Assembly (NCBI RefSeq): GCF_037042905.1 | Contig: NC_087249.1 | Coordinates: forward strand, 14,880,001-14,944,000 | DNA length: 64,000 nucleotides | Source: Lytechinus pictus | Taxonomy: Eukaryota | Direction: 5' to 3' | In this document: positions 3-54,583 of the stretch, piece by piece | Numbering within the stretch: position 1 is the stretch's first letter | Layout: every line of letters starts with the position of its first letter | Translations under genes and position numbers: made by a program | Notes under the pieces: model-generated | The model's database searches: none | What the model was told of the DNA's origin: nothing | What the model saw: the letters and a program-made list of their open reading frames with translations, nothing else

Positions 3-225
3 CGTGCGTTGACAAAGGCAGAACGCAATTATCCGCAAATAGAGAGAGAAGCGTTGGCGATAGTGTTCGCACTTAGAAGATTCCACATGTATATATTCGG
101 TCGTAAGTTCACACTGGTGACTGACAATAAGCCACTCACAGCTATATTCGGACCGTACAAGAGCTTGCCTGCTCTAGCAGCCGAACGGATGCAGCGATGG
201 GCGATGTACCTGGCAGGCTTTGATT
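3..225 (+). CDS. pol: Gypsy pol, RNase H segment upstream of the insertion
   Basis: Frame reads RALTKAERNY...RWAMYLAGFD and joins in frame to 2805 (GGC TTT GAT TAT GAT ATT = GFDYDI) once the insert and one TSD copy are removed. Confidence 0.92.
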
Positions 226-1227
226 TTGCCCCGGGAACCTCGACACGACGTCTTTAGACAGTGTCGAGGTCCTGAACGCTCCCACTCGTTCTCACCGGAG
301 TGCACTGATGCACTAGATTAATCGCTAAATTACAAAAACATGGATGATAAAACGAAACCAAAAATACGACAGTTAGGACTGACCTTACCTAAACAAACTG
401 AGTTCAAGATACGTTCTCCTTAAAATTACGAACATTCGATGGAATCGTACAATAGAGGATCAATTTTCGGATTTCGTACGAATCGCCATGTTGAATTAAA
501 TTAAAAACATGTATGCGCATGCGCAACATGAATATTTATAAGATGTCGTCACTGTTAAGGTTAATGAATATGCATTACAAGAAGAGATAAGAAAACTTCG
601 GTCGAATCACGAACTTGCTTTTCAAATAAATCGCGATTTAGGTATTTCAGTAATGGATATCAATCTTGCTTGCATTTAACATAGAAAAAAAAACATTATT
701 TAAAGAAGAATTCATTTCATTAAAATTATATTTATCTCAATCTGTATATTATGAACAAACATGACTGCGTTTACAAAATACATTTTTTTTTTTTAAAGAA
801 GAAAAAAGAAGGTATTCAACTTCAAAGGAGGGGGCCACTATGGTGGCTTGTCAGGGATCAGTTGTGACTCATCGGGGGGGGGGGGGGGCATAGCTAGGGA
901 CACGTCCCTTGCATGGGTTGTGAGTGTGACTCGTAAGGGGGGGGGGGCATAGGTACGCTAGTGGGAAGATGTTGCCTGAGAAAGACGTATCCAGCCGGTT
1001 GTGGTAAACAAAAAAATGTATATATATATAGGGGAAGGCGGGGTAAGTTGAGCCATCACCCCCGGGCTAATAATAGAGTTTTATTTTTTTTTATTTGTGA
1101 CGTCATATATGCGAGCATTTCTCTTTCTTTTTAAAGCAGGTATTTCTGCATTTATTCAAAATTGCAAATTTATAACAATTATTTAAAATCAAACATACAT
1201 AATGATCAAATTACAACGGTGACAATG

Positions 1228-1409
1228 TAGTTGGCGGTGGAAGCCAACAATTTTAGGGGGCACCACATTTTTTTGAAAAGCAAAAAAAAAATGACAAAAA
1301 AAATTGAAGCAAAAAAAAAAAGGTTATCAACAAAAAATTTAGGGGGGTTCGTAACCCCACCTAAAATTTAGGGGGGATACTCCCCCCGCCCCCACTTCCG
1401 CCGCCTATG
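1228..1409. mobile_element. Short MITE (GGCGGTGGAAG...CTTCCGCCGCCTATG) nested in the 226-2795 element
   Basis: Inverted ends; it interrupts a segment that is contiguous in the homolog at ~7140-7360. Confidence 0.6.
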
Positions 1410-1829
1410 GTTATAAGAAGATATAGACATAATTCATGTAAACAATAACAAATGAATTCAAATGCAGAGACCAGCTACCGTAAGCTGAATGCTTGAAAAA
1501 ATAGCAGCCATATATATGGCTAAAATCAATTCAATAATGGTTTGTTAAAAACATGCCTCGCAGCCAAAGGCTGAATAATTATTTTGTACAACAATTTACA
1601 ACAATAGAATAATACTCAAATACAAACATGAAATGATATCAAATTACTAGTACTTCTTAATATAATACAAGGAAATAAATTATTTGCAAAGAATAGGCTT
1701 CATCATTTCAAGCGTCAATACAAACCACATAAAATAGGCTATCAAATTATCTTTTTACTCACAAGGTGTATCAATTGTTTTCAATTATGCATATTAAAAA
1801 AAATGTGCACACCACGTGCATAATCTCTC

Positions 1830-2190
1830 TCGAAAAAAAAAAAGATGATAAAGAAACTAATTTAAATATAGAGACAATAGGTAGAAAAGTAAAGAAAAAA
1901 GAATAAAAAAGAAAACGAAAGGGAAAAGAAAAGACAAGAAACGAAGAAACAAGAGCAAAAGTCAAAAAGAAAAGAATGAAACAGTAATTAAAGAAAGGAA
2001 AAGAAAATCAACTACGAAACGAAAAGTAGATGAACAAAATATGAAAATAATAAAAACAAAACGGAAAAGGGGATAAAAAATAAAGAAAGTGAAAAGAAAT
2101 CACGAGGGAGAACTAAGAAATAATATTAGAACACGAGAAAAGAATGAAGAAAAAAATTACATGAAAAGAAGCTAATCGAATAAAAACAAA
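1830..2190 (+). repeat. Purine (A/G)-rich low-complexity tract
   Basis: Composition almost entirely A and G. Confidence 0.8.
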
Positions 2191-2804
2191 AGGCCGTTAA
2201 AATAGTGATTTATTCACTGGCTGCCACGCAGCCAAACCATCGAAAAAGAAATTACGCCACTAAGTTAGACTTATGAATATTCATATTACCCTTTCTCGCA
2301 TGCCTCATACGATAGCCTTTTGTCAAAGACTTCTAGTATATTTCTATAGGATCCTCAGTGAATAAACAGGGTGAAATTAATAGGAAGAGCGTATTATAAA
2401 CGTATTATAATTTTATTTTTTTGTTTTTATAAGGATTAGGCTATTATTTTTCTTTTGTTTTTGTTTTCTGCTAGCACGAAGATAAAAATCAATTTATCTC
2501 GTTGCCTCGTCAAAAGGCTATATCGATCCTCCATTGCTTCCTGTACAAAAGACTTTTAATGCACACCGGCAAAATTTTCCGACGTTTTTGCTTCGTTTTG
2601 GGGAATTATTTCGAAGTTTTGAGGGCCGCCCATATTGCGCCTTAAGTTGTAAGTATGTATTGATTCCTTTGTAACAGTTTTGTGCAATTTTATGTATTTT
2701 TGATTGATTCCCGATGCTCATCTGGTTTGATCTGGTGAGCCGGGGTGAATCACAACGCAGCCCGAACACAGTACGTGTTCGGGCTGCCGCAGTAAGCTTT
2801 GATT

Positions 2805-4339
2805 ATGATATTCGATATCGTACATCCCAAGCGAATGCCAATGCCGATTGTTTTTCACGGTTACCTGACAGAAAGGAAGAACCGGATGTTCAAGAACCGG
2901 AAAATGTAGCTATCTGTCACGTAGATGCTTTACCGATGAGTTATGAGGAATTGCGCAACGCGACGCGCAAGGACAAGACACTGTCGAGAGTAATGCGCTA
3001 TTCTCTAGATGGGTGGCCTAAGCGGTTACCGGAAGCAGACAAAGATCTGCAAGGCTTCTATGGGCGCAGATTCGAGATTACCATAGAAAAAGGAATTTTG
3101 TTATGGGGAATGCGAATCGTGGTACCACTGAAAATGCGCAGTGCAGTTTTGCAAGAAGTACATGAAGGGCACTTAGGCGTAGTCAAAATGAAGGCCATTG
3201 CGCGCAGCCATGTATGGTGGCCTGGCATTGATGCGCAAATTGAAGATGCGGCGAAGCAATGTCAAACATGTCAGGTGGTTCAGAAGCAACCATCGCCAAG
3301 TCCATTGCATCCATGGATCCCAGCAACGCGGCCTATGGAGAGGATTCATGTAGATTTTGCGGGTCCCTTGGAAGGACTGATGTTCATGATTGTTGTTGAT
3401 GCATATAGTAAATGGCCAGAGGTGACTATTATGCCAAATATTACTACCGAGAAAACCATTGAAGCATTGAGAAGCATATTTGCAAGATTTGGACTACCAC
3501 AGATCCTAGTATCGGACAATGGTCCACAGTTTACATCCGCGGAATTCACAGAATTCATGAAGTTGAATGGAATAGTGCATAAGCGAAGCGCGCCCTATCA
3601 TCCGAGTACAAATGGGCAGGCCGAGCGTTTCGTACAATCAGTGAAACAAGCACTGAGAGCATCCAAATCAGACGCAGGAAATGTTCAGTCGAGATTGGAC
3701 AGATTTCTTTTGGCATACCGGAATGCCGCACATTCGGTTACGGGCGAATCTCCCGCAGCGTTGTTCTTGAATAGACCTTTGCGTAGTAGGTTGGATAACC
3801 TCCGCCCTAACGTCACAAGAAGGTTTGCGAGCCAATTACACGAGCAAACCATGCAGAGAGAAACACACAGGAAGACCAATAGATTGCGAAAATTTGAGAT
3901 AGGTGACCATGTTTTGGCCCGTGATTATGTAGGAAGGATTAGATGGGTACCAGGTCAAATAGTAGACAGGGAAGGTCCTTTAGGATACAAAGTACAGGTT
4001 GAGAAAGGGGTATGGCGAAGACATGTAGATCAATTGTTGCCTAGATTAGTAAAGGAAGATGGAGAGACTGAAACTCCAGGTACAGAGTTTGACTTAGATA
4101 CAGAGATAGAAAAGTTACAGAGTAGATACAATGATGTTGGTAGAGATCCAATAGGTATTGGTACCAGGGAGCCTCAAACTAGGGCAGATTTGTCTATGCT
4201 AGAACCATCTCAACGAATGGGTAGTATGGAAAATGAAACAAATGGGAATCAGGTGGATTTTCCCAAACCTGACAGCTTCAGGTTGAGAAGATCTGACAGG
4301 GTAAGAAAGCAACCCAGTAGACTTGTTGAAACTATGTGA
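2805..4339 (+). CDS. pol: Gypsy pol C-terminal part: RNase H end plus integrase
   Basis: NADCFSRLP; HEGHLG..KMK..ARSHVWWPGID...CQTC zinc finger; HVDFAGP, SDNGPQF, NGQAERFVQ DDE core; RRSDRVRKQPSRL tail. Confidence 0.95.
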
Positions 4340-10427: not shown

Positions 10428-13400
10428 TTAATATGACAACAAATAAACTTTAAGATTTTTTTTGAAAGTATTCAAAAAGACATTCTCCGTAATCGAAGTT
10501 GGTAATGAGTTCCATACTGTGGGCCCTGTATATCTAACTGTTTTTTGCATATACTGCTTATCAATATTCCAGATATGTAATTTTTTACTATTTCGAGTGT
10601 TATATTTGTGAATCATAGAATTAGTTTCAAACATATTGGCAAGAGGAGGCAAAACGGTTCCTTTGATACACTTGAATACAAAAATGGCAATTTGATAAGT
10701 GTTCAATTTATAAATATCTAATGTGTTTAACTGTTTGAATAGAGGTTTAGAATGAGCTAAATAATGCGAGTTTGTACAAATACGCAAGCAACGCTTTTGC
10801 AGTAAAAACAATGGTTTCAACTTTGAAGGGGTTGAATTTGCCCAAACGATATTACCATAGGACAAATAAGATAAAATTAGTGAATTATAAATAGTAAATA
10901 ATATATTCAGTGGTAAATAGTGTTTAAGTTTTGAAAGTAATCCTGTAGTTTTGCTGATTTTTGAAGAGATCATTGTAATATGAGGCTTCCATGAGAGATT
11001 CTCATCTAATAGTATACCTAGGAATTGTATGTTAGATACTCTTTCAATAAGAGTTTCATCTATATATAATGGGGGTACTTCATATATTACTTGCTTTCTA
11101 CTACTCTGTATTGTTTTGAAAAGAATACATTTTGTTTTTGCTAAATTTAGTGATAATTTGTTAACTTTAAGCCACAATGATACCTTTTTGATTTGTTCAT
11201 TAAACTGATTAACTAATAAATGTATATTGTTATTACTCATAAACAATGAAGTGTCATCAGCAAATTGTATAAACTTTAAGAAAGGGGCAGAGTTACAAAT
11301 ATCATTTATGTATAAGAGAAATAATAGGGGGCCCAAATTTGATCCTTGCGGAATTCCGCATTCCATCAGCAATTGTGAAGAAGTACACCCATTATATTCT
11401 GTAAACTGATATCTATTAGAAAAATAACTTTTGATCCATTTCAATGCTATCCCTCTTACACCATAATTAGCCATTTTCTCAAAAAGTATAGAAAAATTTA
11501 TAGTATCAAAGGCCTTACTCAGGTCCATAAAAACACCAAAAATAAACTGGTTTGAATAAAAAGCATTAACAATTCTATCATGAACAGATATCAAAGCAGA
11601 ATCTGTAGAAATATTTCTTCTAAATCCATACTGATCATTATGTAATACTTTATGTTTTGCTAAAAAATCATATAACCTATTGTAAAATATTTTCTCAACA
11701 ATCTTTGAAAAGCAAGAAAGGAGTGATATAGGGCGATAATTACCGATTATTTCTTTATCCCCCTTTTTAAATATTGGAATAATTTTTGATACTTTTAATT
11801 GCGAAGGTACTATCCCTGCGTTAAGTGAAAGATTAACTATATGAGTTAGGGGTTTTGCTATTGCATATCTAACATACTTAACAACGTCGGGACTAATGTC
11901 ATCCCATCCACAAGACTTACCATTCTTAAATGAACCAATTATTTGATAATTTCATCCTCATTAGTAGGTTTCAAGAATAAACAGTCTTTAAGAGGAGGAC
12001 TCAAAAAAGAAGAAAAATAGTTATCACTGTAATTACTATTTTTAATTGAAGATGCTAATTTTGGTCCAATGTTATTGAAATATTTATTAAAAGTGTTAGA
12101 TATTACCTCAGGATCGCTTAAAGTGTTTCCTTCATGTTTAAAATGTTGTGGTAAAATAGACTTTTGTTTATGAATTACATCATTTATCAATTGCCATGTT
12201 TGCTTAAGATTAGTTCTACAATCATTAAATTTTTGATAAAAATACACCTTCTTTGCTTTTCTAAGTTCTGATGAAATATTGTTTCGAATTGCCTTATATT
12301 TCTTTTCATTTTCTTTTACAGGGTAGCAACGAAACTTTTTATACAGTTTATTTTTCAGTTTGATTTTTTTTAGCAAGTCAAATGTTACCCATGGTTTCTT
12401 TATTTTATTTTTCTTACTTTTCTTAACAAGTAAAAATGATTCATTGTAATGTGTTTGAAATTTAGAAAAAAAGAGATTGTATGCGTTATTAGGACATATG
12501 CTTTCATAAACATCTAGCCATTGTTCACAACATAGTTTGCGAAAGAATGATTTCTTTGTCTTGTCGTTGATTACCCGTGTTTTCTTTTGCATCTCACTTT
12601 TCTGATACATTGGCATGTTGCTTACTATGACGAAGACCGGTAGGTGATCTGAAACATCAGAGTAAATGATGCCACTTTTCAAATCTGAAGTGTATGAATT
12701 AATAAAAATATTGTCGATTAATGACACAGAAGTTTTTGTAATTCTTGTCGGTTTACTTATCATAGGCCTTAAACCATTTGAATATATATTATTTAAAAAA
12801 GTATTTACCCTAGTATCAATAGAAGACTTTAATAGGTTCAGATTAAAGTCACCTAATACATATACATTTTTGTTTTCTTTTGCCAGAGACTGTAGAATAT
12901 TATCCAAATTATCATTGAATTCTAATATATTTGAATTTGGTGGCCTATAGACAAGTAATATCAAAATATTTTTCCCACGTGGGACTTGAATTTCGAGAGC
13001 AAAACATTCTTGACAATTCGTTATCAGACTTAGATCATTCCGTATTGAATATGTAACAGTAGTTGAGATAAGAAAAGCTAAGCCGCCTCCTCTACTTGAT
13101 TTTCGATCTAAATGAATAAATTCATAATCTTGAATGTGAAATATAGGGAGGGAATTATCCGAAATCCAGGTTTCCGTAAGCCCAACCACTGAAAACGGAT
13201 AATCTAAGGAATGAATTAATTGTTCTATATTAGATGAGTTCTTATTTAGGCTTCGACAATTTATATGCAACAAACCAAAGTCAAATTTATCATTTTTTCC
13301 TCTATATTTACAACAAAAATCTTCTGGAAGAATATATTGACAATCTTGAAGCAACGGATTGAAATTCCTGTCCGGATCAAGACCAATGACATCATCATCC

Positions 13401-13693
13401 TCATCATTAGTTATGTCATTAAGAGTCTGTGTAACTTGTGTAATCAATTCTGTGTCATCATGTTCAACAGAATCAAGAACATTTTCAATAAATTCTATGT
13501 TGTCAGAAATGTGATTAAATGGGAAAATATTACATAGACATTCATAGCATATCCAATCAGTTGGGTATCTTTGATATGCATTTGATACCAATCCACAATT
13601 ATCTGCGTGATATTTCAAACAGTTAGTGCACTGTATACCATTACCATCTATACAGTCACAAGTACATTCACTGAACGTTAAATTGTTGATCAT
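10428..13693 (-). CDS. LINE ORF2 (PHD-like Cys finger, APE endonuclease, reverse transcriptase) with one 1-bp frameshift near 11942
   Basis: HINCRSL, GLTETW, VYRPP, LGDFN, IDNIF, SDHLP (APE); after the shift KSCGWDDI, NYRPISLL, QYGFR, DLSKAFD, PQGSNLGPLLF, FADD, FLGILLD in one open frame. Confidence 0.93.
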
Positions 13694-14039
13694 TTACATA
13701 CTGATCAAAGTGAATTATTATCCTGAAAGTACCAATCCCAATGGAACCTGTATGGCTACATGTAAATAGAATAACAACTAATGGAAATGCAGTGAGCATT
13801 TTGGGCGAGAAACATCTAAAAATGGTAATAAAACCATATATAACCAAGTCTAGTAATAAAGAAGTGCACATTTTGAGAGAGAACCAACAACCATAAAACA
13901 ATGGAGATAAAAACAAGAATAAGGCAGTCGAAAGGCAGTACTTAGCTTATAAGCACTACTACTACTACAGACTATTTACAAGTGAACAGGAATATGAAGC
14001 TGTTCTTCAGTCTTATAATCTTATTCAGAGCCAGGAGCC

Positions 14040-14987
14040 TTAAAGGCTTTTACACAAGTTGTTGAGTTGACTTAATGAAGTTATAAGTTTTTTTACTGGC
14101 TCACTTCCGTTCGTCTTCACAGTGGCAAAAATTCTTCCGTCATAATACCATGCGTTTTCAACCATTGGATTTTTTCTCGCGGCCATTAGAAGTTTGAACT
14201 TTTCATTGACTAAGTCTTCTGCTAATGTGAGTCCTGATCCTTTCAGCTTCTTCTTGATTAGCATTATCTCATTTCGTTTTCTGTAAGAACAAAACTTTAC
14301 CAGTATGGACCTTGGTCTAGGCTTATCAACTGCAACCTTCCTCTTGGTCTCAGTAGTTTTTTTCTGCGTGCCCTTACCGACATCAGGCAGTCCTTCAGTG
14401 ATGGGTGTACTGTCGACGGCAGATGTGATGTCCTGGATGTCTTTGACGTTACGTGTGGCGATACCTGGAGGCCTCTTGCCAACTCTGTGGGACCTATCAA
14501 TGTCTCCATGCGTCAGGGGGCAACCAAGAGTTTTGGTGACAATATCAATAACAATGTTATCAGTGTTTTCATTCAATGACTCATCAACACCATAGATTCT
14601 GAGAGAATTGCGGCGACTATATTGTTCGAGCTCTGTGATTTCATTTTCAAGGTGCAACAGCTTTTCAGTTGTTTTTTCAAGAAAATTTTCAGTATGAACC
14701 ATATTACTTTGTGATTTATCAATTTCATTTCGTATATCATGCAAGGTTCCATCTATCATGTCTATTCTTTCTTCATTTTTGTTTATTCTTGCAGATAGTT
14801 TAGCTCTCACATCATCGATGCATTCCTCAATCAACTTCTTGAGTATTTCTTTAAACTCTTTATCCTTGAAAATTTCTTTCACAATTTCAGTTATACCGGT
14901 ACTACTTCCTTTAACTTTACTCTTTTTGTCAGCTTTGGCTTCTGACTTCGTACCTGAACGTAGAGTAATCGAGTTCTCTTCGGACAT
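14040..14987 (-). CDS. LINE ORF1 (coiled coil + RRM + CTD, L1-ORF1/Transposase_22-like)
   Basis: LEQYSRRNSLRIYGV.E..NENTD, DIDRSHRVG, PRSILVKF, EDL, AWYYDGRIF motifs. Confidence 0.92.
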   Translation of the reverse strand: MSEENSITLRSGTKSEAKADKKSKVKGSSTGITEIVKEIFKDKEFKEILKKLIEECIDDVRAKLSARINKNEERIDMIDGTLHDIRNEIDKSQSNMVHTENFLEKTTEKLLHLENEITELEQYSRRNSLRIYGVDESLNENTDNIVIDIVTKTLGCPLTHGDIDRSHRVGKRPPGIATRNVKDIQDITSAVDSTPITEGLPDVGKGTQKKTTETKRKVAVDKPRPRSILVKFCSYRKRNEIMLIKKKLKGSGLTLAEDLVNEKFKLLMAARKNPMVENAWYYDGRIFATVKTNGSEPVKKLITSLSQLNNLCKSL

Positions 14988-16325
14988 GCTACCCGGAAGT
15001 GTAATGTAAACATCACAAGAATTGCATCGTGTGGGACCGAAGTGCCAGTTCGAGCGAAGATAATGTTACCACTCTCAGAACAATCTCACAACAATCCACT
15101 TAATCGAGAACATAAATTACCATTTATGCAGCTCTGTCCGACTGTCCAACTTAAACTTCAGTTTTGCTTCAATTTGTCAAATTTTGGAGCATAAATCGTC
15201 TCAGAGAAAAATAAATCTGGATCACCAATATAGCGCCATCTATATAAACTCGTTTCCTTTGCTTTTCTTTCCTTTTTTTTTTCTTGGTTGAAGAACTTTT
15301 GGGGACCATGGCCCAACCCTTCCATAATCATATACGGCAGTGCTATGCGGTTGGGGTCTGTCTGGAGCTCCCGGAACTTCTTGATATCAAAGCCATATAA
15401 ACCTCGAAGATTGCCGCTATTTTTAATGAAATCGCGGGTATATACAGAATATAGCTGTTACACAACACATTCATATATGTTTATGAAGGGAGAGAGAGAG
15501 AGAGACAAAGATTACATCAGTGCGAGATAATGCATTACATGTAACTGTTTAATTAAGCCAATTAGTACAAACATGAATTATCTAAAAAGACCCATTTTCA
15601 TTCTGTTTGGTTGCCATGTCCCTGTTGAAGGTCAACTTTCCATGCCTATCGATCCAATAAATCTGTCAACATCACCACAGTAATTGTTATTATTATCATT
15701 ATCATCATCATCATTATTATTATCATTTATTCGGCAAAGGAAATTACAAAAAACCCAATACATTTCAGCATAAACAATACAAGATAAGAAATATCAAACA
15801 CTGGAACGCCAGGGACAGAAGAAATTAACCAAATTACTGTGGCATAACATAAAGCCTTCTGTCCCAATTCCAATGGTTGATTCACAATCTACATTATAAT
15901 ATAAAGTAAACAATGATAAAGTACTAGTAATGTGAAGGGATATGACATGCGAAAGGAGTATTCGAAAACAATGTGGGATATAGATCAATTGCAATTTAAA
16001 CTATATGAGTCACTCTCCCCAATAATGGTGGAGTCTTGCAAAAGTTACAAACCTCGATCTACGACTATCCTTGGAAAGAGTAGCTTGGAGAACTAAAACA
16101 GGAATAGACCTGCCACGCAAGAACCGACATTCGAACTGATGGTGAATAGCCGTTGTTACACTAGGAAATTAGGTAGCCTCTTATGGGTCGCAAATTCAAC
16201 GCGGAATATTTTGTTTAAATGGGATAACGTGAGGGAAACAATCATAAATGAATCATTCGATCGTGACCTACTGAATTCCTAAAGTCCATCCTGATAAAAA
16301 TGGTTCATAAGTATATTGGTGATGG

Positions 16326-16600: not shown

Positions 16601-17759
16601 CTAGGATAATAAAGAAACAAAATCGAGATTGATCTATTTAGAGATGATAATTTGCTTTTCTTAAAGGGTTTAATGTTTAGCTATGATAAGGGTAGAGGTC
16701 GAAGGGTATGATGATGATTTTTCTACCATGAATTAACACGAGGCTATTTTGCAATTACTGTCTTATAGGCATTGCGCCCTCTCCAGTGCCTAGAGTACAC
16801 ACTAATGTTGCTTCTACTTCTATCGCAGTACATTTTTTTGCAGGGGGGAGCAAGACACAAATAGATTTTGAAGAAACTAATGGGGCGCTTTTAAATTTTC
16901 TAAAGTGAATTAGAAGGATTTCAAGCACACCTTTGTTGAAGCTAGTGATATTTTTCATAAAAATGTAAGTTTCTTAAATTTCGGGGGGGGGGGGGCTGGG
17001 GCTTTTGCGACTAGATGGATATGAACAGGTAAGGTTCTCCTTACGTTGTTCATGGTACATAAAGAATATTATACCCCTTACTGAAAATTTGTTATTGATT
17101 GGTCGAGGGCCCTTCACGCGTGACTAATCATAATTTCACCCGACCATAAGATCAAAATAGTTGGTGACGTCGGGGTAGAATAGTTTTTTTTTTAAATAAT
17201 ATTTTGGGTCCGACTGAAAACCACGCAATCATCACTCAGGCACAGCGCACGACGGACTGCCTCCACCGGGTAAGTCTTGTGATGCAACGGCGCTCGACGC
17301 AGGGGTCTGCTCATGGGTCTGCTGAGAGATGAGCGCAGCGCAATCAACACAGGTAAAAATGCAATGCTAGCTGAATCACAAACTCTCCGATAAATAACTG
17401 TCAATGTGAAATCGCGTCTTCCTTGTTTACAATGAGTCTGTATGCTGAAAATAAAATAAGTGATGACCATCATTAATTAGATCATCGAATGATTCGGGCC
17501 CCTTGATTTTAGTTCAGCAGGGTTAGTTCACAATCGGTAAGAGGAATTATGAGAAGATCGATCTCACTAGTTCAGCCGCCGCGCCGCGCAACACCAAACC
17601 ACCTTGGGTGATGCTTGGGAGCCGACGGTAGTTTATTCTCGGTCGGTCTGGCAATGTTACTATGTTTAAGTAGTAATTGCCGAACCAACCTCGGACAACG
17701 ATATGTCCACTATACTTTCTCAAACCAAATATATTTGTATGATATAAAAGGTGCATTAC

Positions 17760-19641
17760 CTGTCTGGGCGTACTCTCTTAGATCCTTTTCGAGTTTCATG
17801 AGTTTGTCTTGGGTGCTGTTCTTTGCTTTTCCACCAGCTGTAAGAGAACTCCCTCCTAATCTCCCTGCAGCCGCAATCACCAAAGGTACTGTTGTGACAA
17901 CGTACTCGACGAATGAAGAAACATGAGTGGTTCTGTCAATGAAGACAACAATGAGAGCGACGATGACAAGAAAGACTATTCCGATGATGATGTGCTTGAT
18001 AGTATTGAAGACATGACTGTACAAAGGTAGCCATTTTCGGATAATGTCACGGAGGAGACTGGACTCTATCGTGAATTGTAATTGCGGAGATCCGTCACCT
18101 GTCTGCTGAAAGATTTTGTTTTGCAAACTGTCATCCCGGTCCACTTTTGTGCCGACAGAGTGAATCTTGCTGAAGAGGTGTTGGTAGCTGTCAAAAAACT
18201 GAATTATGTTAGCAACAAAGAAAAATGCACCAAGGATGATATTGATCCAGACGGGGCTTCCATACCTAATATTTATGGCTATTCCAATTGAGGTTAAAAC
18301 AATGATTTCGACCAAGAGCATAGCTGTCGCTGAGAATCGGAAAAAACAGAAAATTACCACAGCAATGTAGTAAAGAACCCTCGTCTTCTTACTCTTCCAG
18401 TTGTATTGTTCCTCAATGAATTGTCCTTGAGTACCATTGTCACTAAGGCGGTACTTGTAAATAAAGTACAAGAAAACTACAGCTCCATCAATGTATAAGA
18501 TGTTGGCTAATCCAAAATCAAGACCCCATGCATTGGTTCGGGTGAACATCTCTCCACGCTGGAAACTTCTGTAAGCGTATTCATCAACTCGGGTGGCATA
18601 CCACAGGAAAGCTACAAAGTAAATGATGAATGGTACAGCATAAACCAAGGCCCAGTATGTCATGTTGAACATTTTGTGATGCCGTGTGTTATTTGAAGCA
18701 AGCATGAGCAACACAGGTGGGATAAGATTGATTCGTAAGATGTTTACTGACTCTCCAGAGCCTTCATCCTGGTAATTAAAATTTCTGGAGTAGATCCTCC
18801 ACAATTCCCAGATGAGGGCCAACAAGAGCAATATGTAAGTAATCCCAAAAGAAATAGTAACGATAGTACATCCAATTGTAAACGAAGGGTAAACTAAACA
18901 GTTGTCCTGATCACATGTCTCTATATTCATGATATTCCAACATTCGTAATAGCTGCTCGATTGCAGATCGAAGAGACTATAACCAGGAATCAACGTAGCC
19001 CCAAACAACGGTGAGCTTAAATACCTTTCTTTACATAAGACGTCATCCTTGACATCCTGTGAAGCACCACCTGTATTCTTCAACTGACGCCGAACTTGAC
19101 GCAGGACTTTGGACAATGTATATCCCAAGCAACCATCGGAATACGATTCGTTTAATGCTCCAGTGTTGTCGATTGTGACATTGACCCAGTGAAACCCGAA
19201 GCTCAGAGTGTTCAGAGACAAAGACTTGTTGTCGTAGGGGAAATGGAGTAAGGTTTTTCCCCTGCCACCAAGCCCCCAGTGCCAGACCGATGGGTTACTC
19301 TGCTCTGAGTTGTCTGGTAGGTTGTCATCGATAAAGACGAGATTGATTCGTACTAGGCTAACATAATCGTTGGTAACATTAAGTCTTGAGATGATTCCCT
19401 GCACCGTGCCATCAGAAATGTTTAGCTCTTTGGTGCACGGTAAGTCCATCTTTGTGTCATTTTGGATGAACAGCGAGTCGCTGTCCAACGAAAAACGGCG
19501 ATATATGGCAGAATCCTCAAGGTCCAGAGACGTCCCCTTGTGTTGCGTTAAGAGCAGTACCATAAGCAAGGAGAGAAGAAATAACAGAGGGATGCCTACC
19601 ATCAATTTCCTGTTGATGTTTAATTGCTTTTGGTGAGCCAT
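17760..19641 (-). CDS. Uncharacterised multipass membrane protein, main exon, copy A (627 codons; ~718 aa spliced)
   Basis: 1.9-kb open frame; N-terminal hydrophobic anchor, ~220-aa Cys/sequon-containing ectodomain, 7-8 further hydrophobic segments; acceptor AG at 19661-19660; donor AG|GTAATG at 17759. Confidence 0.9.
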
Positions 19642-19814
19642 TCTGGGTATCTTTGCAATCTACAAATATAAAAAATGTCAATACTAAAATTAATTATGTT
19701 ACCGGGATTCCTTTAATAGGTACACTCATATCAATTTTTTTTCGAGAAAAGGTTATATTTCGTTTTCAACATCATGATTTTAGTCTAGGTGAATTGATTT
19801 TCTATTTCTTTTAA

Positions 19815-50957: not shown

Positions 50958-53900
50958 CTATAGCGAAGACTGAGCAGTCTTGGAGCTACCTTGGGGTAAA
51001 GAGACGGATGCGACTGAAGTTGGAGGTTGATCATCGTGACCGTTACCGGGTACAGAATGCTCTGACGGGTCGGTAGACTGATTTATGGATCCGGCAGGAG
51101 CAGCAGGATCTTGGTTCTGTGTTTGGCCTTGGTTTGGATCCTGCTGATCTGGTTCCGATACGCAGCACATGAGACAGGAGAGCCATATGTAGAACGATTG
51201 CCCACATGAAGCTTCAGGCAGCGGGAATTCGCCTAGGATAATAAAGAAATAAAATCGAGATTGATCTATTTAGAGATGATTAAAAATGATTATTTGCTTT
51301 TCTTAAAGGGTTTAATGTATAGCTATGATAAAGGTAGAGGTCGAAGGGTATGATGATGATTTTTCTACCATGAATAAACACTAGGACATTTTGCAATTAC
51401 TGTCTTTTAGGCATTGCGCCCTCTCCAGTGCATAGTGTGCACACTAATGTTGCTTCTACTTCTATCGCAGTACATTTTATTGCAGGGGGGGGGGGCAAGA
51501 CACAAATATATTTTGAAGAAACTTAATGGGGCGCTTTTACATTTTCTAAAGTGAATTAGAAGGATTTCAAGCACACCTTTGTTGAAGCTAGTGATATTTT
51601 TCATAAAAATGTAATTTTCTTAAATTTCGGGGGGGGGGGGGGGCTGGGGCCTTTGCGATTAGATGGATATGAACAGGTAAGGTTCTCCTTACGTTGTCGA
51701 TAGTAGATAAAGAATATTATATCCCTTACTGAAAATTTGTTATTGATTGGTCGAGGGCCCTTTACGCGTGACTAATCATAATTTCACCCGACCATAAGAT
51801 CAAAATAGTTGGTGACGTCGGGGTAGAATAGTTTTTTTTTTACATTTTGGGTCCGACTGAAAACCACGCAATCATCACTCAGGCACAGCGCACGACGGAC
51901 TGCCTCCACCGGGTAAGTCTTGTGATGCAACGGCGCTCGACGCAGGGGTCTGCTCATGGGTCTGCTGAGAGATGAGCGCAGCGCAATCAACACAGGTAAA
52001 AATGCAATGCTAGCTGAATCACATACTCTCCGATAAATAACTGTCAATGTGAAATCGCGTCTTCCTTGTTTACAATGAGTCTGTATGCCGAAAATAAAAT
52101 GAGTGATGACCATCATTAATTAGATCATCGAATGATTCGGGCCCCTTGATTTTAGTTCAGCAGGGTTAGTTCACAATCGGTAAGAGGAATTATGAGAAGA
52201 TCGATCTCACTAGTACAGCCGCCGCGCCGCGCAACACCAAACCACCTTGGCTGATGCTTGGGAGCCGACGGTAGTTTATTCTCGGTCGGTCTGGCAATGT
52301 TACTATGTTTAAGTAGTAATTGCCGAACCAACCTCGGACAACGATATGTCCACTATACTTTCTCAAACCCAATATATTTTTATGATATAAACGGTGCATT
52401 ACCTGTCTGGGCGTACTCTCTTAGATCCTTTTCGAGTTTCATAAGTTTGTCTTGGGTGCTGTTCTTTGCTTTTCCACCAGCTGTAAGAGAACTCCCTCCT
52501 AATTTCCCTGCAGCCGCAAACACCAAAGGTACTGCTGTGACAACGTACTCGACGAATGAAGAAACATGAGTGGTTCTGTCAATGAAGACAACAATGAGAG
52601 CGACGATGACAAGAAAGACTATTCCGATGATGATGTGCTTGATAGTATTGAAGACATGACTGTACAAAGGTAGCCATTTTCGGATAATGTCACGGAGGAG
52701 ACTGGACTCTATCGTGAATTGTAATTGCGGAGATCCGTCACCTGTCTGCTGAAAGATTTTGTTTTGCAAACTGTCATCCCGGTCCACTTTTGTGCCGACA
52801 GAGTGAATCTTGCTGAAGAGGTGTTGGTAGCTGTCAAAAAACTGAATTATGTTAGCAACAAAGAAAAATGCACCAAGGATGATATTGAGCCAGACGGGGC
52901 TTCCATACCTAATATTTATGGCTATTCCAATTGAGGTTAAAACAATGATTTCGACCAAGAGCATAGCTGTCGCTGAGAATCGGAAAAAAACAGAAAATTA
53001 CCACAGCAATGTAGTAAAGAACCCTCGTCTTCTTACTCTTCCAGTTGTATTGTTCCTCAATGAATTGTCCTTGAGTACCATTGTCACTAAGGCGGTACTT
53101 GTAAATAAAGTACAAGAAAACTACAGCTCCATCAATGTATAAGATGTTGGCTAATCCAAAATCAAGACCCCATGCATTGGTTCGGGTGAACATCTCTCCA
53201 CGCTGGAAACTTCTGTAAGCGTATTCATCAACTCGGGTGGCATACCACAGGAAAGCTACAAAGTAAATGATGAATGGTACAGCATAAACCAAGGCCCAGT
53301 ATGTCATGTTGAACATTTTGTGATGCCGTGTGTTATTTGAAGCAAGCATGAGCAACACAGGTGGGATAAGATTGATTCGTAAGATGTTTACTGACTCTCC
53401 AGAGCCTTCATCCTGGTAATTAAAATTTCTGGAGTAGATCCTCCACAATTCCCAGATGAGGGCCAAGAAGAGCAAAATGTAAGTAATCCCAAAAGAAATA
53501 GTAACGATAGTACATCCAATTGTAAACGAAGGGTAAACTAAACAGTTGTCCTGATCACATGTCTCTATATTCATGATATTCCAACATTCGTAATAGCTGC
53601 TCGATTGCAGATCGAAGAGACTATAACCAGGAATCAACGTAGCCCCAAACAACGGTGAGCTTAAATACCTTTCTTTACATAAGACGTCATCCTTGACATC
53701 CTGTGAAGCACCACCTGTATTCTTCAACTGACGCCGAACTTGACGCAGGACTTTGGACAATGTATATCCCAAGCAACCATCGGAATACGATTCGTTTAAT
53801 GCTCCAGTGTTGTCGATTGTGACATTGACCCAGTGAAACCCGAAGCTCAGAGTGTTCAGAGACAAAGACTTGTTGTCGTAGGGGAAATGGAGTAAGGTTT

Positions 53901-54583
53901 TTCCCCTGCCACCAAGCCCCCAGTGCCAGACCGATGGGTTACTCTGCTCTGAGTTGTCTGGTAGGTTGTCATCGATAAAGACGAGATTGATTCGTACTAG
54001 GCTAACATAATCGTTGGTAACATTAAGTCTTGAGATGATTGATATGCAAAGCCTTTCATACGAATTGATAAAGAGCGAAATGATATTCCTTTGATTTACA
54101 ATGCTATGTATGTTTAAATTGTCACTTCCCACTCTATATTTTGGTGTTAATTGTTTCTGATGTTAGATATTTTGTATTTTGTATTTTTGATGTTGTTTGT
54201 TGTTGTTGTTCATAGTTATCTTGACATGTATTTTAAACTGCAGGGCGCCTTTGTAAAGCAGTTTTAAGAACTGAACAGGCCTACCCTGCAGTATAAAATA
54301 AATAAAACAAAATAAATAAATAAATAAATAAATAAATTCCCTGCACCGTGCCATCAGAAATGTTTAGCTCTTTGGTGCACGGTAAGTCCATCTTTGTGTC
54401 ACTTTGGATGAACAGCGAGTCGCTGTCCAACGAAAAACGGCGATATATGGCAGAATCCTCAAGGTCCAGAGACGTCCCCTTGTGTTGCGTTAAGAGCAGT
54501 ACCATAAGCAAGGAGAGAAGAAATAACAGAGGGATGCCTACCATCAATTTCCTGTTGATGTTTAATTGCTTTTGGTGAGCCAT
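50958..54583 (-). pseudogene. Membrane-protein gene copy B, disrupted (main exon 54583-52403, last exon 51232-50958)
   Basis: 298-bp LINE-tail insertion at 54041-54338 brings a stop at ~codon 101; A7 versus A6 frameshift at 52984-52990. Confidence 0.9.
54041..54338 (+). mobile_element. 5'-truncated CR1/L2 LINE 3' end with (AAAT)n tail
   Basis: Absent in copy A; ATT at both junctions; CTGCAGGG..CCCTGCAG stem-loop before the tail. Confidence 0.88.

Follow-up and report, generated by a model that had tools for sequence, protein, structure and literature searches.

How is a transposon that encodes no genes, and that carries a different hairpin at each of its ends, cut out and moved, and what does it leave at the place from which it departs? 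These questions are raised by one insert near the start of a 64,000-nucleotide stretch of the genome of the sea urchin Lytechinus pictus (contig NC_087249.1, positions 14,880,001 to 14,944,000 of the forward strand), which we refer to as the window. As a class, the element is an ordinary one; what we find noteworthy is that its family has left scars made of little else than its tips, together with what those scars would imply for the cut and for a helicase. The reading that we prefer, and to which we give a probability of roughly 0.55, is that the insert is a gene-less derivative of the AcademH transposons whose helicase-assisted excision would proceed by a deep staggered cut, stranding the hairpin tips on the donor chromosome.

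A Recent Insertion in a Gypsy Element

Is the insert real, and is it young? Both points have been confirmed. The insert is window 226-2795 (2570 bp), coordinates and sequences agreeing with the initial annotation, and it interrupts the pol of a host Gypsy element, read on the + strand from an RNase H part at 3-216 (PF17917, E 6e-21 over window 3-224) into an integrase part at 2805-4339 (PF00665, E 2e-17; PF17921, E 7e-16). A 9-bp target site duplication, GCTTTGATT, stands on the + strand at either side, at 217-225 and at 2796-2804. In the 812 Mb of genome searched, all seven other copies of this Gypsy are uninterrupted and hold the 9-nt site once (99-100% identity over 196 nt), and the empty target site is present in contigs from three of four public runs. 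The exact boundaries, the duplication and the recent movement that had been claimed for this insert are thus borne out.

What was inserted is a non-autonomous, internally deleted copy, oriented on the + strand. From its left, helicase-side tip it runs through one arm of a weak terminal inverted repeat (226-247, +) and a subterminal hairpin (237-270; 10-bp stem, 14-nt loop starting 22 nt from the tip) into a left body (271-791, +), which in sister copies precedes the helicase gene. The internal-deletion junction lies at 791-795, where alignments with longer copies break (element 565-570), and the deletion took the helicase exon and the start of the transposase from the window copy. The right body that follows (795-2756) is non-coding, its counterpart in sister copies lying upstream of their transposase gene; several copies lack the stretch at ~795-1068. 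A second hairpin (2757-2787; 13-bp stem, 5-nt loop starting 22 nt from the tip) and the other arm of the inverted repeat (2774-2795, -) make up the transposase-side end, and both hairpins are places at which the remnants described below have their breakpoints. The window copy is the shortest among the long forms. It has a twin on C16, 18 substitutions away, with the same deletion and a 10-bp duplication of its own, so the deleted form has moved as such.

The outer arm of the right hairpin doubles as a recurrent insertion target. At one 9-nt site within it, window 2775-2783, three different elements with 9-bp duplications have inserted (L072, at C3:19493394, L184 and L187), and one of the three is the window family itself.

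Two Ends and Two Hairpins

The stems are perfect, pairing 237-246 with 261-270 on the left and 2757-2769 with 2775-2787 on the right, and they exceed what chance would give: shuffling the left 60 nt produced a 10-bp stem 4 times in 2000, shuffling the right 60 nt produced a 13-bp stem 0 times in 2000, and the folding z of four 80-nt strands was -2.9 to -5.0. That each end has its own, different stem is therefore sound, and the hairpins are kept across the family. Both loops start at nt 22. The two ends share little sequence.

Two companion claims survive in part. One was that there is no proper terminal inverted repeat. The element, whose termini are TT..AA, does match itself at only 14 of 22 terminal positions, and a longer inverted repeat is absent from its first and last 600 nt; the weak repeat is nonetheless real, being above chance (23 of 20000 shuffles). 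The other was that the ends are recognized as local palindromes and not as terminal repeats: the remnants do break inside the hairpins, but the weak 22-nt inverted repeat exists beside them. Less fortunate was the expectation of compensatory changes in the stems. Across 15 sequences of the left stem, six of nine pairs are invariant, none of the nine has a two-sided change, and the loop varies; given this pattern, a hairpin and a pair of binding sites look alike, and, as far as an alignment can tell, the ends may be recognized in folded form, as hairpins, or as binding sites arranged in inverted pairs. In copies that are otherwise intact, small insertions sit in the loops, as though these had been broken and rejoined.

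A Family and Its Targets

How large is the family? A right-end 21-mer has 151 exact matches in the genome and a left-end 22-nt pattern has 154, the reversed control giving 0 for each; the left hairpin is intact at 61 places, and a right-hairpin pattern gave 58 matches, 4 of them unrelated. There are ~60 long copies, some forming a young subfamily at 95-99% identity and others an older one that is ~70% identical internally and has retained its ends. Their sizes differ by internal deletions and nested elements, and tandem arrays, considered as another source of that variation, were ruled out.

The 9-bp duplications looked for in other copies were found. In a set of 41 other long copies, which range from 2.6 to 20 kb, the duplication is 9 bp long in 36 and 10 bp long in 3, which makes 39 of 41, and is imperfect in the remaining 2; in another set, 26 of 26 copies had 9 or 10 bp. 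At 73 sites with 9-bp duplications, a few of them in related repeats, the target preference is a mirror image, with G/T 0.86, C/T 0.85 and A/T 0.96 at positions -4 to -2 and A/T 0.94, A/G 0.92 and A/C 0.86 at +2 to +4, as would fit symmetric, two-ended integration by a DDE enzyme.

An array was seen at C3:12394295-12419750 (L097, L098, L172), in which the left end and its flank occur in five tandem repeats, the helicase exon being multiplied. The array is closed off by a right end that has decayed and by the duplication.

Gene Scraps and the AcademH Lineage

To which transposons does such a family belong? Sister copies answer with scraps of two genes. At element ~650-800, longer copies hold the first exon of a RecQ-type helicase, with motif I, reading left to right (inward); 35 of the 41 genome matches to this exon (E<1e-17) are family copies, and it matches the Pfam DEAD profile (PF00270) at E 1.6e-5 and 25.1 bits, slightly below the cut-off of 26. 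From the other side, reading right to left (inward), three copies (L093, L064 and L073) hold the start of a cysteine-rich zinc-finger exon, in scraps of 200, 58 and 17 residues. This scrap is 40% and 35% identical to the first exons of two genes on C16, in which a profile derived from a DUF6589 protein matches 8 and 7 further collinear exons; DUF6589 we take to be the Academ transposase. The C16 homologs have a PHD finger and facing helicase C-terminal pieces, and the PHD finger in these nearest relatives presumably marks the PHD sublineage of AcademH. Facing scraps of a helicase and of a DUF6589 transposase make the family, with a confidence that we would call high, a non-autonomous AcademH derivative and neither an HUH element nor a new superfamily. 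AcademH had been one candidate of the initial annotation; a family outside the described groups, which it had also entertained, is what the same scraps speak against. In the excerpts available, AcademH duplications are given as 9 or 10 bp (PMC10045372), AcademH is said to carry DEAD/Helicase_C domains (PMC10799480), and Academ is credited with an RNase H-like domain (PMC5751038).

A long copy with the same ends and an intact transposase had also been hoped for, and only the scraps in sister copies were found. Translation of the long copies and of ~40 flanks of unpaired ends yielded no intact master with these ends; long frames encountered there, when considered as master genes, proved to be those of nested LINE, Gypsy and other elements, and the family copies translated hold no MULE-type reading frame. 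Searches with both gene scraps met no intact close gene in the genome, and within 30 kb of the closest helicase exons elsewhere, on C15, C12 and C2, there is no matching transposase. In two raw RNA runs, read at 6%, the helicase exon has almost no cover and no spliced joint leads from it; the ESM Atlas returned only leads under 0.9 for a first exon.

For one full AcademH in the genome, the ends could be determined. At C10:32259752-32276882 lies a full-looking element of 17.1 kb with a 111-bp inverted repeat, a 9-bp duplication, helicase and transposase genes that face each other, and a tip stem of 5 bp only; for the AcademH loci on C16, C5 and C2, a hairpin-plus-duplication scan gave no ends among the matches listed. 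The model of the C10 transposase (P0001), for which 104 of the 153 sequences collected were used, has an RNase H/DDE fold at pLDDT 94.9, with conserved residues D225, D377, H412, D660 and E664. A wide structure search gave 21 chains at Z>=8, every one of them an integrase or a transposase. The P-element transposase is among the joint best (Z 9.7, rmsd 6.4, with 363 aligned, the longest alignment of those rows), a rank that it shares with retroviral integrases. With Foldseek nothing matched at E<=0.001, its first ten rows all being transposases or RAG1, and phmmer against solved structures gave nothing.

Other relatives were noticed along the way. At C16:9364000-9404000 and 9433000-9503000 there is a pair of AcademH genes that have decayed; they have PHD fingers, and their PHD exons are tandemly multiplied and accompanied by a 66-bp minisatellite. 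At L195-L206 and L213-L217 there are at least 14 intron-free DUF6589 frames of ~970-1850 residues, which we assume to be, as seems likely, a nuclease-bearing Academ lineage.

Tips Without a Body

What does the family leave behind? The lists of left and of right ends are both complete for C1-C8. They contain 96 left ends and 99 right ends, which form 70 pairs, and the spacing of these pairs falls into three groups: 36 of 70 span 45-81 bp, 29 span at least 2570 bp, and in the five in between (302-1162 bp) the tips, which again stop within hairpins, are separated by foreign DNA. No element-derived product of 81-2570 bp occurs on these contigs. A divergent copy of 213 bp with extra left sequence lies on C13.

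Overall, the remnants measure 42-83 bp. None is smaller than 42 bp: a search that allowed 19-49 bp and required only 9 and 10 terminal bases gave 12 loci, all of 42-49 bp. Most other remnant patterns required the outer arms, and all of these searches detect only scars that retain element sequence. Of 57 small loci submitted to a parser, 56 were parsed; the pair lists supplied 20 of these, unpaired ends 4 (of 5), the 19-49-bp search 12 and a further set 20 (of 55), and together they reduce to 48 sites with 45 different sequences. By exact match the 48 sites keep 18-40 nt of the left tip and 18-33 nt of the right; with a single mismatch tolerated, two remnants extend to about 41-43 nt. Microhomology of 1-5 nt joins 26, while 5 are blunt and 17 contain filler. 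A perfect 9- or 10-bp duplication surrounds 38 of the 48, and 47 have lost the inner hairpin arms, which the long copies conserve. One-sided remnants likewise stop in a hairpin, two bodies start at element positions 40 and 41, and end-to-end joins in the same loops appear in contigs from three public runs. Small-share runs from other organisms added nothing. Identical remnants at several loci (L102, L106, L112 and L127; L105, L108, L150 and L152) have identical flanks, and because identical remnants mostly share flanks, we believe that they were copied inside other repeats.

That the remnants are excision scars of donor sites is, in our estimation, very likely. The literature that we searched held no account of Academ excision scars or hairpin ends; an earlier description may nevertheless exist, for example in Yuan and Wessler (2011) or in Kojima's paper of 2020, reportedly the one that defined the AcademH lineage of Academ DNA transposons.

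Similar remnants attend two other families with 9-bp duplications and hairpin ends, which are candidate parallels, neither being tied to a transposase. One (L096:2996-5748; L135; C16:9388947-9392130; C2:52958540-52961454) ends in CACTCA...TGAGTG, has 249 right ends and a hairpin near each end, with a loop that begins at nt 25, and shows 9-bp duplications in four of five long copies seen. Thirty of its right ends comprise 17 that are intact, 5 with altered loops and 8 without an adjoining body, and for 3 of these 8 the second duplication copy is 28-38 nt away; a two-ended remnant pattern gave 0 in the genome. The other (L272:6804-7417; L342-L381) has long inverted repeats starting TAACCCAG and a 12-bp subterminal stem, and is represented by 552 intact ends and 90 remnants of 24-54 bp, many of which keep just 12 nt per side; 9-bp duplications flank 7 of 10 that were checked.

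A Deep Cut at the Hairpin?

How might such scars arise? P elements offer a precedent. They are cut at the 3' tip and, on the other strand, 17 nt inside (PMC7776569, in excerpt), and the 17-nt overhangs of the donor heal to leave the duplication and both tips, joined by microhomology or templated filler (PMC2895639, in excerpt). The remnants of the window family are made up in the same way, except that they keep 18-43 nt, which would suggest a deeper stagger, set at the hairpin.

We picture the reaction as follows. A DDE transposase and a RecQ-type helicase, supplied in trans, likely move the window element. The transposase would cut the transferred strand at the element's two tips, but would cut its partner strand much deeper, at the hairpin, whose loop begins at nt 22 and beyond which the longest remnants reach 40-43 nt. 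Between the two cuts would lie a duplex of 20-45 bp, which the helicase would separate; so long a duplex would need unwinding, and this would explain why a helicase is there at all. The element would then integrate with a 9-10-nt stagger, and the 3' overhangs left on the donor would fold back, be trimmed in the loop, and be joined by microhomology or templated filler into remnants of 42-83 bp. Partial gap repair may account for the longer internal deletions and one-sided truncations. Extended to the lineage, the idea becomes more tentative, and we lean slightly away from it: AcademH might make the deepest staggered cut known among DDE transposases, at ~22-45 nt and set by the hairpin, with a RecQ helicase unwinding between the cuts and the remnants recording the reaction. 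Among the points counted against the deep cut are that pattern searches gave 0 remnants for the C10 AcademH, with its conventional inverted repeat, and 0 for a helicase-bearing family on C18 (counts not scaled to copy number), that no change in the left stem was two-sided, and that many remnants of the family with the 12-bp stem retain so little of each tip.

The main rival to this deep staggered cut, which is itself read from scars that either course could leave, is aborted gap repair. Suppose that the element is cut flush at its tips, that synthesis refilling the gap from the sister chromatid halts, or folds back on itself, on reaching the first hairpin, and that the short ends are then joined. 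Incomplete synthesis followed by end joining is the common outcome of P excision (PMC2895639, again in excerpt), the family does include long internal deletions as well as long copies in which one end is truncated at the loop, and the family with the 12-bp stem has 24- and 49-bp remnants that end exactly at the first self-complementary points. Stalling at a stem of 10-13 bp should leak, however, and the range of 81-2570 bp is empty of element-derived products on C1-C8, the 213-bp copy on C13 being the exception; both sides stop in hairpins despite having little sequence in common; and the floor lies at 42 bp. The near-empty range and the floor argue against aborted gap repair, which we consider unlikely.

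Might the small units instead be mobile mini-elements that were inserted as such? They retain both tips, most of them have perfect duplications, and a small number of junction types are found at more than one unrelated site. The recurring junctions, however, lie at 2-5 nt of microhomology and carry different subfamily marks, almost every site has a sequence of its own, the inner arms that long copies conserve are gone from all but one remnant, and identical remnants mostly owe their number to common flanks; with junctions so diverse, we regard mobile mini-elements as improbable. Equally improbable, we think, is mis-cutting, in which the transposase or a structure-specific nuclease of the host would break extruded, paired hairpins and the middle would be lost in an event unrelated to productive transposition. 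The small loop insertions of intact copies are what it would produce, as are the altered loops in 5 of 30 ends of the CACTCA family; against it, remnants are about as many as long copies (36 versus 29 on C1-C8), which is high for an accident, and the stems are short. Least credible of all is an HUH element (Helitron/Helentron-like) or a Mutator. Helitron/Helentron and IS200/IS605 elements share subterminal hairpins with the window family, a likeness that the initial annotation had raised, and Helitrons share the helicase; HUH elements use an HUH nuclease and are not known to make a 9-bp duplication, whereas the window family has duplications of 9-10 bp, symmetric targets and scraps of a DEAD-type helicase and a DUF6589 transposase of the DDE kind. 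Mutator would fit the duplications, and the Mutator-like Muta1, with duplications of 8-9 bp, has a palindromic motif at its ends (PMC5499845, in excerpt); unlike the window family, it has long symmetric repeats and no helicase, and its cleavage leaves hairpins on the flank and its excision is more than 90% precise (same excerpt).

Comparison with Known Systems

How does the family compare with systems that are already known? With AcademH it shares duplications of 9 or 10 bp and the pairing of a DEAD/Helicase_C helicase with a DDE transposase. It differs from the C10 AcademH in having a 14/22 match and two unlike hairpin ends in place of a 111-bp perfect inverted repeat, and from AcademH in the literature searched, where tip-only remnants were not found, in having them in abundance. 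P-element donors keep the duplication and both tips, with a join of the same kind, and the P transposase has a DDE fold related to that of the C10 relative P0001; yet P elements make an 8-bp duplication, a length seen in 0 of 41 long copies of the window family, and have a 31-bp perfect repeat, a 17-nt stagger and no helicase, whereas the window family keeps ~18-43 nt of tip and has hairpins and a helicase. KolobokH likewise combines a DDE transposase with a RecQ helicase, but it is described, in the excerpt of PMC9587614, from fungi, with a TTAA-specific 4-bp duplication and RR..YY termini; the varied 9-10-bp duplications and TT..AA termini of the window family rule out that identity.

Why should any of this matter? 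A family with recent activity and scars that are dated and number in the dozens predicts where each strand would be cut and what the helicase would do, and a natural full element in the same genome makes the prediction about the cut testable. Of the difference in duplication length within Academ, the excerpt of PMC10045372 says only that it seems related to the accessory enzyme. There is also a plainer consequence, in that tiny "hairpin mini-elements" of sea urchins may be excision scars and not MITEs, which affects both annotation and counts of activity.

Other Observations

Three further features were noted. A tyrosine-recombinase frame with DUF3504 lies at L100:3534-4502 and is, we presume, Crypton-like. 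In the window itself, three long frames that resemble a non-LTR retroelement lie at 10431-15065 (-), and two long frames at 17713-19659 (-) and 52912-54162 (-) have a protein stretch in common, one of them with what looks like a predicted membrane segment near its start.
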